NCBI RefSeq assembly: GCF_016127575.1
Contig: NZ_CP066019.1
Span: 1,920,001-1,952,000, forward strand
Direction: 5' to 3'
From: Cupriavidus necator
GTDB taxonomy: Bacteria; Pseudomonadota; Gammaproteobacteria; Burkholderiales; Burkholderiaceae
Length of the DNA stretch: 32,000 bases
Below are positions 2 through 20,668 of this stretch, in pieces (position 1 is the stretch's first letter; each line of letters opens with the position of its first letter). Both the position numbers and the translations under genes were made by a program. The notes under the pieces were generated by a model. That model was not told where the DNA came from. It saw only the letters and a program-made list of their open reading frames with translations, and did not search any database.

Positions 2-412
2 CGCTTTATCTGCCGCACAGGACATCCGCTTGTGCAACAGGCTGCCGGCGGAGACGCCGTATCGTTTGACGATGTCATGCGTTATCCGCTGGCTTCCGCC
101 CCGCTCAGCACGGAAGTCGCGCGCAACCTGGTGAAGCGCTTCGGTCCACGCGCGGATCCGGAGCATTGCCTTAGCCTCAGGTGCGAGAATGTCCGGAGCC
201 TGGTCGAAGCTGTGCTGGATTCCGACGCGATACTGTTCAGCATCGTCGCCGCAGTGCGTGCGGAGATTGCCGCAGGAAAACTATGCGAACTGGTCACGAC
301 CCCAGCGGTCGATGATGGCCCCCGCTATGCCTCTTTCACCCTGGCGGGGCGGACCGAGGCGCCCAGCATGGAAATATTCCGGAAATTCACGGACGAGCAT
401 TTGCGTGACTAG
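2..412 (+). CDS. LysR-family transcriptional regulator, C-terminal (effector-binding) part; the 5' end lies outside the window
   Basis: The frame is open from position 2 (RFICRTGHPLVQQAAGG...), with no stop before 412. The sequence pattern is typical of the C-terminal half of a LysR substrate-binding domain. The listed ORF start at 32 is only an internal GTG. Confidence 0.55.
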   Translation, partial: RFICRTGHPLVQQAAGGDAVSFDDVMRYPLASAPLSTEVARNLVKRFGPRADPEHCLSLRCENVRSLVEAVLDSDAILFSIVAAVRAEIAAGKLCELVTTPAVDDGPRYASFTLAGRTEAPSMEIFRKFTDEHLRD

Positions 413-584
413 CCGCCAGGCGAGCTGTTCCCGATCGGCAGCGTTATGCTTGAATCCATTCAGGGCAATGATGTGCCTTGTCGATGCACAATAAGAGTTC
501 CTTGGATCACCCAACCTCCACTCCGAGACCGGTACCGGAGCCGTCCCGTGAGTTCCCGTTCCTTATTCAAAAGCGGATGCCGGT

Positions 585-1388
585 ATGCCAAGGCCCCAGA
601 TCCTGACCTATGTCGACGCCGGCGCTTCCGACTGGACCGCATGCCTGATGCGGACCATCGGGCACCAACTCCACGCCAGCACCTACGAGAACCGTGCGGT
701 GATGGCAGACGACATCCGGCACGACGCCACGCTGTTCGATGGGGCGGTGCTGTTTGTCTTGCCGGGAGGCGCCGACCTTCCCTACTGTGCAATGCTGAAC
801 GGTGCCCCGAACGCGCGCATCCGGCGTTTCGTCGAACAGGGCGGCGTCTACCTCGGGATTTGCGCGGGCGCTTACTACGCATGTCGGGAACTGGCGTTTC
901 ACGCCGGCACCAGGGGCGCAATCTGCGGCCCGCGCGAGCTGTGCTTTGTCGACGCCGTGGCAGTGGGCTCGCTGCCAGAACTGACTGACGGCATGCTGTA
1001 TGACGGCACGCCGCGTACCACGGCCGCGGTGAAACTGCGCACCACGGACAGCCTGACCGATGTCCCGATGTCGCTATACACCCACTACCATGGCGGCTGC
1101 CGCTTTGACTTCGGCGACGCTCCCGGCGCTGACACGCAGGTCCTGGCCGTCTATGCGGATATCGATGGCACGCCGCCGGCCATCGTCAGTTCACGGGTTG
1201 GCAAGGGCCGCGCGGTGCTCGCCGGCGTCCACCTTGAGATCTCCGAGCGGGAGTGCAAGGATGCGCTGCGCGGACACAGCGATATGCGTGAACACCTCCA
1301 TGTCTGCGACCGGCTGGCGGAGACCGGCGATACACGCCTGGCGGTGTTTCGCCGGTTGCTGGCGCACGCGGGGCTGGTGCTGAACTGA
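585..1388 (+). CDS. Stand-alone BPL_N-like protein (biotin-protein ligase N-terminal domain, class-I glutamine-amidotransferase-like fold)
   Basis: 267 aa. The motifs FVLPGGADLPY, GGVYLGICAGAYYA, PRELCF and AAVKLRT line up with the conserved blocks I recall from the N-terminal domain of yeast Bpl1 and holocarboxylase synthetase. No BirA catalytic domain is attached. The start is ATG and the RBS is weak. Confidence 0.7.
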   Translation: MPRPQILTYVDAGASDWTACLMRTIGHQLHASTYENRAVMADDIRHDATLFDGAVLFVLPGGADLPYCAMLNGAPNARIRRFVEQGGVYLGICAGAYYACRELAFHAGTRGAICGPRELCFVDAVAVGSLPELTDGMLYDGTPRTTAAVKLRTTDSLTDVPMSLYTHYHGGCRFDFGDAPGADTQVLAVYADIDGTPPAIVSSRVGKGRAVLAGVHLEISERECKDALRGHSDMREHLHVCDRLAETGDTRLAVFRRLLAHAGLVLN

Positions 1389-1427
1389 GCGGCGCGCCCT
1401 ACCCTTTGGCCGGCATTCTTAGTGAAT

Positions 1428-3158
1428 TCACACAATGTTGACCAGCCGCGTCCCCGCCGTCAGGAACGTGCCTGCGGCCGCCTGCCACGTTACGCGGCCG
1501 CCGCGATGAGCATGGACTTGCATCTCCATCTTCATGGCTTCCATCACGGCGATCAGATCGCCTTCCTTGACCTCGTCGCCAACTGCGACCTTCCAGGTCT
1601 GCACGGTGCCGGCGATCGGGGATGGCAGGTCGGCCGGGTCAGTAGCGGCGGCCTGGGCCGGCGCCGCGGCGCTGCCTTGCCCGGGCGCGTCGGCGAGGCC
1701 GCGCAGCAGCTGCGCCGGCAGCCCCAGCACCATGCGGCGGCCGTCGATCTCGATGGCGGTGCGCAACAGGCTGGCATCGTGCCGGGGCTCGGCACGGGTG
1801 GCCGCTGCCAGCGGTTCGGCGAAGTCGGACTCGATCCAGCGCGTGTGGACCCTGAAGCCATCCGCGCCGAGGAAATCTGCGTGGTCGATCACCGCACGGT
1901 GGAACGGCAGCACCGACGCCACACCCTCGATACGGAACTCGCGCAGCGCACGGCGTGCGCGCGCCAGCGCCTGTTCGCGCGTGGCACCGGTCACGATGAG
2001 CTTGGCCATCAGCGAGTCGAATGTGCCGGGGACCACCGAGCCCGACTGCACACCCGAGTCCACGCGCACCCCGGGGCCCGACGGAGCTTCGAAGGTCTGC
2101 ACCGGCCCGGGCGTGGGCAGGAAGCCGCGGCCCACGTCCTCGGCGTTGATGCGGAACTCGATTGAATGGCCCAGCGGCGCCGGGGTTTCGGTAATGGAGA
2201 GCGGCAAGCCATCCGCCACGCGCAATTGCTCGACCACCAGGTCCACGCCGGTGGTCTGCTCGGTCACGGGGTGCTCCACCTGCAGGCGGGTGTTGACCTC
2301 CAGGAAGGAGATCGCGCCGCTGGCGCTGAGCAGGAATTCCACGGTGCCGGCACTGGTGTAGCTGGCCGCCGCGCAGATGTCGCGGGCGGCGGCGTGGATA
2401 CGCGCGCGCTGCGCGTCGGTCAGGAACGGCGCGGGGGCTTCTTCGACCAGCTTCTGGTTGCGGCGCTGCAGCGAGCAGTCGCGCGTGCCCAGCACCACGA
2501 CATTGCCATGCTGGTCGGCCAGTACCTGCGCTTCGATATGGCGGGGCTTGTCGAGGAACTGCTCAACGAAGCATTCGCCGCGGCCAAAGGCAGTGACAGC
2601 CTCGCGCACGGCGGAGGCGTACAACTCCTCCACCTCATCCATGCGCCATGCGATCTTCATGCCGCGGCCGCCGCCGCCGAAGGCTGCCTTGATGATGATC
2701 GGCAGGCCGTACTGCTCGGCAAAGGCCAGTACCTCACTGGCATCCACGACCGGGTCGGGCGTGCCGGCGACCAGCGGGGCGCCAACCTGCAAGGCGATCT
2801 TGCGCGCTTCCACCTTGTCGCCCAGCCGCGCAATCGTGGCGGGAGACGGGCCAATCCAGACCAGGCCGGCATCGATCACGGCCTTGGCAAAGGCTTCACT
2901 TTCCGACAGGAAGCCGTAGCCTGGATGCACGGCATCTGCCCCGCTGCGCCGGGCGATATCGAGCAGCTTGGGAATGTTCAGGTAGGTGTCGGCCGGACGG
3001 TCGCCATCCAGGCCGTAGGCCTCGTCGGCCAGCCGCGCGTGCAGCGCGTCGATATCAGCATTGGCATACACGGCCACCGACCCGACTCCGTAGTCGGCAC
3101 AGGCGCGGATGATGCGGACGGCAATCTCGCCACGGTTGGCAATCAGGACTTTCTTCAT
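1428..3158 (-). CDS. Biotin carboxylase fused to a C-terminal biotin carboxyl carrier (BCCP) domain
   Basis: 576 aa. The N-terminus [20 protein letters not shown] and the ATP-grasp region are typical of AccC-type biotin carboxylases. An Ala/Pro-rich linker is followed by the biotinyl domain ending ...[13 protein letters not shown]. The AMKM lysine codon is at 1530-1532. Confidence 0.93.
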
Positions 3159-4856: not shown

Positions 4857-5669
4857 CTAGACGTGATACGTGCTGTCTGGCACGTCGGTAATGAACATGT
4901 GGCCCGGCGCATGCGTCACGGCGAACGGCACGCCTGACGCCATCACGGCCGCCTGGGGCGTGACGCCGCAAGCCCAGAACACCGGGATCTCGCCCGGCTC
5001 GATACGCACGGCGTCACCAAAGTCAGGCCTGGCGAGGTCGGCAATGCCCAGCGCGGCCGGATCGCCGACATGGACGGGCGAGCCGTGCACCGACGGGAAG
5101 CGTCCGCTGATGGAAACCGCATCGGCAACCCGATGCGCAGGGATGGGCCGCATGGACACGACCATCTCGCCATGCAGGCGGCCAGCCGGGCGACACTGGC
5201 GGTTGGTGCGGTACATCGGCACGTTGGAACCGTCGGCGATATGCCGCACCTCGATGCCTGCCTCTTGCAGCGGCGTCTCGAAGGTGAAGCTGCAGCCGAT
5301 CAGGAAGGTGACCAGGTCCGGGTGCTCAGTCCACAGGGGCGTGGCATCCGCCACCTCCTCCGCCAGCTTGCCGTCGCGCCACACGCGATACAGCGGGATA
5401 TCGGTGCGGATATCGGCCCCTTGCGCCAGCACGGTCTGCTGTGCACCCGCTTCGATCACGTCGAGCACGGGACAGGCCTTGGGGTTGCGTTGCGCGTACA
5501 GCAGGAAGTCCCAGGCCCAGTCGCGCGGCAACGCGATCATGTTGGCTTGCGTCATCCCCGGTGCAATGCCGGCGGTAGGCTGTACCGTGCCGGCACGGTA
5601 GCTTGCGCGCGCTGCGCGCGCGGCGTTCACGGCGGCGATGCGGGTGCGTTCCAGTGCGGAATCTTGCAT
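4857..5669 (-). CDS. DUF1445 / UPF0317 'putative hydro-lyase' (D-glutamate cyclase-like family)
   Basis: 270 aa from the ATG at 5669 ([28 protein letters not shown]...). GGAG lies ~9 nt upstream. The longer listed ORF (to 5816) would overlap the MFS gene and looks like an artefactual extension. Family recognised from conserved blocks ([29 protein letters not shown]). Confidence 0.8.
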
Positions 5670-5697
5670 GCGTGTTGCTCCAGTGTCTTGGATCAGA

Positions 5698-6951
5698 TCA
5701 ATGCGCGGCCTCGGCCCCGGCTTCGGCGAGCAATTCGCGCCCTTGCGTTTCCGGCAACAGCAGGCAGGCGATAACGACCAGCCCATAGGCGCCGGCGGCG
5801 AGATAGCCGATGGCAACCCCCAGCGACATCGATGCGCTCATATGCCCGATCATGGCCGGGAATATGGAACCGACCGCACGGCCAAAGTTGTAGCAGAAGC
5901 CCTGGCCGGAGCCGCGGATATGGCTCGGATACAGCTCCGTCAGGTAGGCCCCCATCCCCGAGAAGATCCCGGACAGGAAGAAACCCAGGGGGAAACCCAG
6001 CACCAGCATCGCGGCGTCGGTGATCGGCAACTGCGTATAGCAGATCACGAGGAAGGCCGCGCTCACCGCAAACAGCATGAAGCAACGCCGGCGCCCCAGG
6101 CGGTCGGACAGCCAGGCGCTGGTCAGGTAGCCGGCGAAGGACCCGGCGATCAGCACCATCAGGTAGCCGCTGGTGTTGAGCACGGAGAGATTGCGTTCCA
6201 TCTTGAGGTAGGTGGGCAGCCAGGTCGTCACCGAATAGTAGGCACCTTGCATGCCGGTCGCCAGCAGGCTTGCCAGCACCGTCACGCGCAGCACGCCGGG
6301 CTTGAAGATCAGCATGAAGTTATTGCTTTGCCCGGTGCGGGCCAGCTTGGCCCTGGTTTCCTGATACACCTCGGGCTCGGAGATATTGCGGCGGATATAC
6401 AGGATAAAGACCGCCGGCAGCACGCCGGCCCAGAACAGCACGCGCCATGCGTATTGCTGCTCGAACACGGCATAGACCGCCCAGAATGCAATCGCCGACA
6501 GGCCCCAGCCGATGGCCCAGCTGCTTTGCACCAGTCCGACCGCCTTGCCACGGTGGCGGGCCCGGATCATCTCGGCGATCAGCAGGGAACCGACTGACCA
6601 TTCGCCGCCAAAGCCCAGGCCTTGCAGCATGCGGGTCAGGAACAGTTGCTCGGGGGACTGGGTGAAGCCGCTCAGGAACGTGAAGAAACTGAACCAGAGC
6701 ACGGTCAGCTGCAGGATCCGCACGCGACCATATTTGTCGGCCAGGATGCCGGCCAGCCAGCCGCCGATGGCCGAGCTGATGAGCGCGCCCGTCGCGATGT
6801 AGCCAGCCTCGGCCTTGGTCATGCCCCACACCAGGATGAAGGTGGGGATCATGAAGGTGTAGATCATGTAGTCGAAGGCATCGACCCCATAGCCGACGAA
6901 GGCGGCAAAGAGCGTCTTGCGCTCCGCCTGATTTGTTTCTTTAAGCCACAT
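5698..6951 (-). CDS. MFS transporter (metabolite:H+ symporter-like)
   Basis: 417 aa from the ATG at 6951; the listed ORF begins at an upstream TTG. There are multiple hydrophobic helices and the MFS signature [13 protein letters not shown] lies between TM2 and TM3. It is the first gene of the minus-strand operon. Confidence 0.88.
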
Positions 6952-7126
6952 GGTTGCGCTCACTATGGATAAGGACAAAGCGTGGACAAGGCTCGTCGCG
7001 ATGTCTTCACGACGAAGTTCCGGTAGCGAGCAAGACCACTAAGACAGCGGCCCCGCACCCCAGCCGCTGTTTAGCAAAACACATGCCATGTTCATCTATC
7101 TGCACGTATGACTCAACCACCGTGAC

Positions 7127-19708: not shown

Positions 19709-20668
19709 TCACACGGCGGCCGGCTCTTCGCTGCGCCGCGCACGGGCGGCACGCTTGAGGGATTGCGGCGGCTCGCCGAAAATCCGCAAGAACGCCCGGC
19801 GCATGCGCTCCGGGTCGGAGAAGCCGGTCTTGCTGGCGATGCGCTCGATCGTCAGCGTGCCGGCTTCCACGAGCAGGCGGGCCGTGTCGGCGCGCAAGCG
19901 CTCGACGGCACGTGCCGGGGACTGGCCCGTGCTCTGCCGGAACTCGCGGCTGAAATGCCGCGGGCTCATGTTGGCGGCGCTGGCGAGCAGCTCCACCGAC
20001 AGATCCTGGTGCAGATGATTCCTGGCGTAGGTCAATGCCGCTTGTATGCGCTCTGACCTCGATTCCAGTTCCGACAACATCGAGAACTGGGACTGCCCCC
20101 CGGCACGGCGGTGATGAACCACGAGCTTCTTCGCGACTGCGCGCGACACGTCGGTCCCCAGGTCTTGCTCTACCAGTGCCAGCGCAAGGTCGATGCATGC
20201 CGTCATGCCGGCCGATGTCCACACCGTTCCGTCCCGGACAAAGATGCGGTCGTCTTCGACGCGCACCGCAGGAAAGCGCTGCCGCAGCGTACTGGCATGG
20301 TGCCAATGCGTAGTAGCCCGCCGGCCGTCCAGGATGCCGGCCTCGGCGAGGATGAACGCCCCCGTGCAGATGCTGGCCATGCGCCTGGTCGGCTCGAGTG
20401 CATGGCCTAGCAGGCGCAGCAGCCTGGGCGATGGCGCCGGCACCGAGGTAGCGCCCCCAACCATCAGCGTGTCAAAAGCCAGCGGATCCATCGCGGTGGT
20501 CTGGATCGCCGTGCCCATTGAACTCTTCACGGCCCCGCCGCGTTCCGAGACGACATGGATTTCGTAGGCCGGGACCCGCACTTCGAGGTTAGCCATCTCG
20601 AAGACCGACACCGCCGCCAAATCGAGCATCTGAAAGCCGGGGAAGAGCACGAGGCCGATTTGGTTCAT
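19709..20668 (-). CDS. GlxA-family transcriptional regulator (DJ-1/PfpI-like N-terminal domain + AraC-type HTH)
   Basis: 319 aa. The N-terminal MNQIGLVLFPGFQMLDL...ASICTGAFILAEAG is followed by C-terminal AraC HTH repeats (...LSVELLASAANMSPRHFSREFRQSTGQSPARAVERLR...). Confidence 0.92.
   Translation of the reverse strand: MNQIGLVLFPGFQMLDLAAVSVFEMANLEVRVPAYEIHVVSERGGAVKSSMGTAIQTTAMDPLAFDTLMVGGATSVPAPSPRLLRLLGHALEPTRRMASICTGAFILAEAGILDGRRATTHWHHASTLRQRFPAVRVEDDRIFVRDGTVWTSAGMTACIDLALALVEQDLGTDVSRAVAKKLVVHHRRAGGQSQFSMLSELESRSERIQAALTYARNHLHQDLSVELLASAANMSPRHFSREFRQSTGQSPARAVERLRADTARLLVEAGTLTIERIASKTGFSDPERMRRAFLRIFGEPPQSLKRAARARRSEEPAAV

Follow-up and report, generated by a model that had tools for sequence, protein, structure and literature searches.

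A stand-alone BPL_N gene of Cupriavidus necator: predicted class-I amidotransferase fold, Cys-His-Glu triad and biotin-related neighborhoods of the family

The stretch of DNA analyzed here (hereafter the window) comprises 32,000 nucleotides of the second chromosome of Cupriavidus necator, the genome of which totals 7.4 Mb on three replicons. The gene under study is located at 585..1388 on the forward strand and encodes a protein of 267 amino acids without signal peptide. It is preceded on the same strand by the 3' end of a LysR-type regulator gene (2..412; full gene at L001:402-1313, assigned by Pfam), from which it is separated by an intergenic region (413..584). Downstream, a 39-nt spacer (1389..1427) separates its stop codon from that of a convergent gene on the reverse strand (1428..3158), assigned by Pfam and encoding a 576-amino acid fusion of a biotin carboxylase with a biotinyl-carrier domain (BC-BCCP). 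The latter is the last gene of an operon composed of MFS, DUF1445, KipI-KipA and BC-BCCP genes; past BC-BCCP, the order is a KipI-KipA (PxpB/PxpC-like) fusion, a DUF1445 hydro-lyase, an MFS transporter and a divergent GntR/FCD regulator. Both the LysR gene and the BC-BCCP gene are included as context only.

Two further observations were made on the genes of the window. The longest open reading frame (ORF) of the DUF1445 hydro-lyase (4857-5816, reverse strand) overlaps the MFS gene (5698-6978, reverse strand) by approximately 120 nt; since its NCBIfam match starts at residue 62, the gene probably starts further downstream than the first TTG. At 19709-20668 (reverse strand), an AraC-type regulator carries an N-terminal DJ-1/PfpI domain, making it the second protein with a GATase-like fold in the window, with an ordinary, known architecture.

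The product of 585..1388 was assigned to the BPL_N family (PF09825) with an E-value of 3.6e-45 and a score of 154.5 bits against a cut-off of 24.2, the match covering positions 3-265 of the 283 of the profile; the same result was obtained when the search was repeated on the genome. A preliminary description of the sequence had named three motif blocks of the N-terminal domain of eukaryotic biotin protein ligases and proposed that no ligase domain is present. These blocks were found at residues 60 (PGGADLPY), 86 (GGVYLGICAGAYYA) and 116 (PRELCF), and Pfam detected BPL_N only, with no BPL_LplA_LipB or BPL_C domain in the product. As the ORF stops at residue 267 and BPL_N is its sole domain, the protein is not a class III biotin protein ligase. 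A CN_hydrolase domain was likewise absent according to Pfam, placing the protein outside the nitrilase-superfamily biotinidases. The NCBIfam library contained no model for the product. Public records already label the gene 'BPL-N domain-containing protein'.

A structure model was generated with AlphaFold2 from an alignment of 28 homologues (pLDDT 93.8, pTM 0.93). Foldseek matched this model to class-I glutamine amidotransferases (GATases) in all top hits, namely PdxT/Pdx2, PurQ, HisH and gamma-glutamyl peptidase, at E ~1e-8, and the protein is therefore predicted to adopt a class-I GATase-like alpha/beta fold. By sequence, the best match in the PDB was PdxT (E 0.02), with the nucleophile elbows aligned (GTCAG in PdxT). 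As the PDB matches were marginal throughout and restricted to GATases, no BPL_N structure has been solved according to this search. A search of the ESM Atlas gave no usable lead.

Alignment with the family and with PdxT placed the nucleophile-elbow cysteine at Cys93, in G-I-C-A-G (TGC codon at 861..863, forward strand). The His-x-Glu of the triad was located by the family alignment at His216-Leu-Glu218, in GVHLE (codons at 1230..1238, forward strand), corresponding to H215 and E217 of yeast Bpl1 (PMC12582158). Among 117 aligned family members, the cysteine was retained in 117, the histidine in 108 and the glutamate in 106. Losses of histidine or glutamate were nearly all confined to second tandem paralogues, the remainder being a few algal proteins, and the motifs outside the triad (PGGADLPY, REL, YHGG) were all retained. 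The profile and structure checks that the preliminary description had called for came out in favor of its assignment, the Cys-His-Glu triad that it suggested looking for is present, and the short distance it reported between the two convergent stop codons was confirmed.

Pairwise dN/dS values of 0.12-0.21 against eight orthologues indicated purifying selection, and BPL_N was present in 47 of the 77 other Cupriavidus species genomes. Together with sense-strand RNA (see below), these results establish 585..1388 as a real gene. By profile, alignment and model, its product is a free-standing BPL_N protein, predicted to be cytoplasmic, with the fold of a class-I glutamine amidotransferase and an intact Cys93-His216-Glu218 triad.

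Transcription was assessed from the raw reads of four stranded RNA runs (X21-X24). First mates were taken to read antisense, because the reverse-strand operon dominates the column of first mates on the forward strand. Sense-strand depth over BPL_N was 28-49 in X21-X23 and 65-79 in X24. The operon followed the opposite trend, with depths of 150-1300 in X21-X23 but 2-23 in X24. Just ahead of the BPL_N start codon, sense depth in X24 rose from ~22-25 in bin 235-468 to ~77 in bin 469-702, a step that points to a promoter within 413-584; BPL_N would accordingly be transcribed from its own promoter. A consensus scan of 413-584 gave no sigma-70 match. At the other end, operon RNA continued past the spacer to cover ~250-450 nt at the 3' end of BPL_N, and the RNA of BPL_N decayed across ~1 kb of BC-BCCP antisense. 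This mutual read-through is expected, since the spacer measures 39 nt and a scan of 1389..1427 revealed no recognizable terminator.

The same reads contained two unusual junctions in the operon. Two 24-nt stretches, at 1524-1547 and 6274-6298, were joined in opposite orientation by 30-200 reads, identically in all four runs. In the joining reads, the stretches were flanked by foreign sequence on either side, and each contained one mismatch (1539 T>C and 6290 A>G); the stretch at 1524-1547 encodes the conserved biotinyl-lysine (AMKM) region. These reads probably come from another expressed locus sharing both short stretches. Furthermore, position 1974 was joined to 4457 with five extra letters (ACATC) in 3 to 25 reads of X21-X23, leaving out 2.5 kb of BC-BCCP and KipIA. 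A chimera, a minor deletion variant and an engineered strain are all possible sources of this junction.

Gene neighborhoods of the family were analyzed in a first set of 80 genome loci with 10-kb flanks and a second set of 80 metagenome loci (~160 in total). ORFs were called with a custom script and neighbors were clustered; the caller is crude in high-GC DNA and missed the overlapping DUF1445 gene. Within the genome loci, three close relatives (89-95% identity) were the only ones with the BC-BCCP, KipIA, DUF1445 and MFS genes beside BPL_N; the flanks of 16 other Cupriavidus loci and of every distant locus contained none of them. Outside the Cupriavidus/Burkholderiales clade, no KipI/KipA or BC gene was found at distances of up to 10 kb from BPL_N in genome loci or up to 6 kb in metagenome loci.

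Within the genus, 78 species genomes were compared, of which 48 carried BPL_N, 34 a KipIA orthologue and 26 both. The two were adjacent in 5 of these 26, and on one metagenome contig; eight genomes had the operon without any BPL_N and 22 had BPL_N without the operon, the operon being conserved without BPL_N in most Cupriavidus genomes. In the five genomes and on the contig, the tail-to-tail position was kept despite a differing upstream flank. In a BPL_N protein tree (quick IQ-TREE), the adjacent cases formed one young subclade, which also held a non-adjacent member. Elsewhere in Cupriavidus, orthologous operons ended beside a deaminase and HipA, PhoD, or an alpha/beta hydrolase. The neighbor upstream of BPL_N varied as well among species (LysR, AsnC, AraC, LysE, PAS-cyclase or porin). 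The possibility that a pxpA gene normally lies 3' of BC-BCCP and was replaced by BPL_N was considered and rejected, as four other Cupriavidus genomes simply varied in the gene at this place and their scanned ORFs gave no match to a LamB/YcsF-family (PxpA) domain.

For the co-occurrence test of BPL_N with BC-BCCP/KipIA loci suggested in the preliminary description, the raw odds ratio within the genus was 3.25 (p 0.02). Genome size and kinship confound this value, which fell to 0.7 in Cupriavidus genomes under 7 Mb, and it was not counted as support. Given the adjacency in 5 of 26 genomes, the convergent orientation and the uncoupled RNA levels, BPL_N is not a component of the BC-BCCP operon and its neighbor is a lineage-specific juxtaposition. 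On the other hand, the genome contains only eight biotin carboxylase genes, which makes adjacency to one of them mildly improbable by chance: we estimate roughly 0.25% per random gene, and perhaps 3-4% over the approximately one dozen contexts in the genus. On the basis of this rough estimate, BPL_N may have a looser link to biotinylated proteins. The window thus also serves as a caution that an eye-catching neighbor gene is not necessarily a conserved partner.

Across the ~160 loci, clustering of neighbors yielded three recurrent partner kinds of BPL_N, all of them biotin-related: bioY, birA and avidin-like genes. The bioY gene directly adjoined BPL_N in 22 loci. Twelve of these were among the 80 genome loci, in Pasteurellaceae (divergent), Brevinema (divergent) and Chlamydiae (overlapping and co-directional); ten were among the 80 metagenome loci, three of which read ABC_tran-CbiQ-BioY-BPL_N (bioMNY-BPL_N). 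Fusions were also found. In Chlorokybus protein P0180 (489 amino acids), BPL_N (4-269) is fused to BioY (318-470, 33 bits), and in fungal class III ligases BPL_N is fused to BPL_LplA_LipB. Green-algal BPL_N proteins of ~500 amino acids (P0141, P0147, P0157 and P0216) were observed to lack a ligase domain, one of them carrying a PAP2 domain and the others having no domain assigned to their C-terminal halves. No conserved synthase neighbor was found in the ~160 loci. The family comprised 4,684 clusters at E <= 0.001 and 2,348 at E <= 1e-10; among the best 150 of the 4,684 clusters, nearly all lengths were 200-300 amino acids. A bioB match over the cut-off was absent in 12 of 15 carrier genomes outside Burkholderiales; the genomes without a match were mostly incomplete metagenome-assembled genomes but included one complete Micavibrio genome. 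The genome of the window has bioB and one birA (C1:1365306, chromosome 1), and BioY is absent.

In the Burkholderiales clade to which the window protein belongs, an avidin-like gene was found tail-to-tail with BPL_N in four Cupriavidus genomes and on seven contigs from soil, the BPL_N copies concerned being 69-80% identical to the window protein. The avidin-like protein (131 amino acids, starting with MTIRVGRW) has no signal peptide; it was assigned to Avidin by Pfam (34 bits) and matched wilavidin and streptavidin at E 2e-6 to 5e-4. The avidins known to us are secreted, and a cytoplasmic avidin-like protein is therefore unusual. On four of the seven contigs, L090, L092, L093 and L094 (L092 and L093 being near-identical), a second birA gene lies beyond the avidin-like gene, two genes from BPL_N. 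It overlaps the avidin-like gene by 4 nt in L092 (avidin-like gene at L092:3604-3999, second birA at L092:3996-4853, both on the reverse strand) and directly adjoins it in L090, L093 and L094. Further avidin-like genes were located at L163:4891-5283, L164:5059-5451, L165:4679-5071 and L015:10812-11204. Seven Cupriavidus genomes had any avidin-family gene, and four of these had one beside BPL_N. Genome G047 has two BPL_N genes, one adjoining the avidin-like gene and the other the BC operon. The avidin-like neighbor fits a link to biotin and is no specific pointer to hydrolysis.

These neighbors (bioY/bioMNY, birA, avidin-like) and the fusions clearly tie the whole BPL_N family to biotin. Of the accessory role in biotin metabolism that the preliminary description proposed, the broad connection to biotin is strengthened, and the dedication to the BC-BCCP protein is not supported, given the infrequent adjacency and the uncoupled RNA levels.

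Tandem BPL_N pairs, frequently located close to dnaA or gidA, were observed in Micavibrio-type, Bdellovibrio-like and alphaproteobacterial genomes (loci L021, L022, L024, L035, L038, L039, L041, L045, L062, L064, L073, L080, L088, L103, L104, L150 and L154). High divergence marks the second copy, in which the histidine and glutamate of the triad are often lost, with an intact copy alongside, and this arrangement suggests pairs of an enzyme and a pseudo-enzyme. In Micavibrio-type loci, the second tandem genes were considered as birA; this was rejected, as Pfam identified them as divergent BPL_N paralogues. Five genomes, four of them with tandem pairs, were searched for biotin genes: BioY was found in none, and bioB was absent in four, the exception being G008 (single-copy locus L030), in which bioB gave a sub-threshold match only.

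The best reading of these data is that the protein works in the cytoplasm as a cysteine hydrolase of a biotinyl-acyl substrate, independently of the neighboring operon, and biotinidase-like salvage is our first guess at its role; we give this reading an even chance of being correct. A biotinyl-acyl substrate is favored because a strict Cys-His-Glu triad in an acyl-enzyme fold is combined with three independent kinds of biotin-related partners. Cys93-His216-Glu218 would form an acyl-enzyme with the biotinyl substrate, and the likeliest reaction would be hydrolysis of biotinyl-lysine (biocytin) or of biotinyl-peptides arising from protein turnover. The free biotin released could then be re-attached by BirA, amounting to a biotinidase-like salvage step. 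In variants of the scheme, the compound hydrolyzed would be biotinyl-5'-AMP, or biotin would be taken off holo-carrier domains. In this BioY-less biotin prototroph, the step would recycle the cell's own biotin and would not be specific for the neighboring enzyme. We know of no biochemical activity for any BPL_N protein, and we infer the substrate from gene neighborhoods only. Release of biotin fits the abundance of the family in host-dependent or predatory bacteria without biotin synthesis, as well as the fusion to the re-attaching enzyme. The salvage logic is weaker here than in auxotrophs, because this genome makes biotin and lacks BioY, and it also counts against salvage that most Cupriavidus BPL_N copies have neighbors unrelated to biotin.

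Three other explanations were weighed against this reading. BPL_N could be a dedicated accessory of its neighbor that specifies, proofreads or reverses biotinylation of the 576-amino acid BC-BCCP protein, or that supplies a hydrolytic step of the operon's pathway. The persistence of the tail-to-tail arrangement next to changing upstream flanks speaks for such a role, as do the small number of biotin carboxylase genes by which chance adjacency was estimated, the position of other clade members tail-to-tail with the gene of another biotin-binding protein, the avidin-like one, and the view that the N-domain of eukaryotic ligases contacts biotin-domain substrates (PMC12582158). These points are outweighed by the many genomes having either gene without the other, by the restriction of adjacency to one young subclade that itself includes a non-adjacent member, by the variable genes at the end of orthologous operons, and by the lack of KipI/KipA/BC genes near BPL_N in all loci outside the clade. 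Moreover, BPL_N and the operon converge and have separate promoters, a GntR regulator belonging to the operon is located at its far end, and RNA levels are opposed, all of which renders a dedicated accessory quite improbable. A non-catalytic role in trans, in which BPL_N binds BirA and/or apo-carrier domains to tune substrate choice and the triad serves structure or ligand binding only, draws on the covalent joining of the same domain to the ligase in fungi (31-42% identity), on the second birA two genes off in L090, L092/L093 and L094, and on yeast, where the domain is needed for full ligase activity and is glutaminase-negative (PMC12582158). Against it, the genome's BirA is encoded on another chromosome, and the conservation is of a kind typical of catalysis, the cysteine persisting in all 117 sequences and the histidine and glutamate in every primary copy despite very large distances. 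Paralogues in second tandem position that lack histidine or glutamate beside an intact copy are likewise as expected for an enzyme and pseudo-enzyme pair, and we consider the partner role unlikely.

It is just as unlikely, in our estimate, that BPL_N in Cupriavidus is an amidase or glutaminase unrelated to biotin, having kept fold and triad while drifting to another amide substrate, with biotin neighbors reflecting the wider family only. Such a drift would agree with the prevalence of neighbors unrelated to biotin in Cupriavidus, often with a LysR, AsnC or AraC regulator upstream, with the prototrophy of a genome lacking BioY, and with the closest solved folds being glutaminase subunits and gamma-glutamyl peptidase. 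However, avidin-like neighbors, some with a second birA, occur inside the same clade at 70-80% identity, a partner synthase gene is never adjacent, and the family motifs besides the triad are all kept.

Extended beyond Cupriavidus, the hydrolase reading leads to a more tentative proposal, which we regard as possible but doubtful: stand-alone BPL_N proteins and the N-domain of fungal and animal holocarboxylase synthetases may form widespread, undescribed biotinyl-amide (biocytin/biotinyl-peptide) hydrolases or biotinyl-transferases, giving microbes a biotinidase-like recycling. If true, such a family would explain why BPL_N travels with bioY, birA and cytoplasmic avidin-like genes. To our knowledge, decades of work on the eukaryotic biotin protein ligases have not yielded a function for their N-terminal domain. 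The free-standing bacterial BPL_N proteins constitute a large family that shares the triad and whose neighborhoods point to the uptake, attachment and binding of biotin. Because they are simple and soluble, consist of a single domain and occur in tractable hosts (C. necator H16, Mannheimia), the role of the domain is directly testable. If the activity is release of biotin from biocytin or peptides, it would fill the microbial biotinidase gap and would matter for biotin scavenging by parasites and predators. A full-text search returned no literature on stand-alone BPL_N proteins, and no described bacterial gene of this kind was found in the literature on biocytin/biotinidase/BioY and avidin gene clusters.

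Among known systems, the N-domain of class III ligases (S. cerevisiae Bpl1, human holocarboxylase synthetase) has both PF09825 and the GATase-like fold in common with the window protein. The triad of yeast Bpl1 (C89/H215/E217), for which a 2025 study reported absence of glutaminase activity and a role of the domain that is not known (PMC12582158), occupies nearly the same positions as C93/H216/E218, and fungal ligases align at 31-42% identity across most of the length. In contrast to these ligases, the window protein is encoded by a separate gene of 267 codons for amino acids, without linker, catalytic domain or C-terminal cap, and the sole BirA is encoded on chromosome 1. The class I GATase subunits (PdxT/Pdx2, HisH, PurQ) and gamma-glutamyl peptidase GGP1 have the same fold (Foldseek E ~1e-8, TM 0.5-0.7), the G-x-C-x-G elbow and H-x-E. 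BPL_N differs from them by its marginal sequence similarity (best E 0.02), by extra C-terminal helices (221-261) and by the absence of a synthase partner gene, and its yeast homologue does not hydrolyze glutamine (PMC12582158). The bioY-linked BPL_N proteins of Pasteurellaceae, Brevinema, Chlamydiae and metagenomes belong to the same family (~230-270 amino acids, with the triad, 33-47% identity). Relative to bioY, their genes are overlapping, downstream or divergent, or else they lie downstream of bioMNY, in mostly bioB-less genomes, whereas that of the window has another neighbor in a genome with bioB and without BioY. Animal biotinidase (EC 3.5.1.12) is a cysteine-nucleophile amidase that frees biotin from biocytin; it is secreted and belongs to the nitrilase superfamily, with a CN-hydrolase fold and a Glu-Lys-Cys triad, whereas BPL_N has a different fold and is predicted to be cytoplasmic. 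Only the proposed chemistry is common to both, and biotinidase would thus be an analogue of BPL_N, not a relative.
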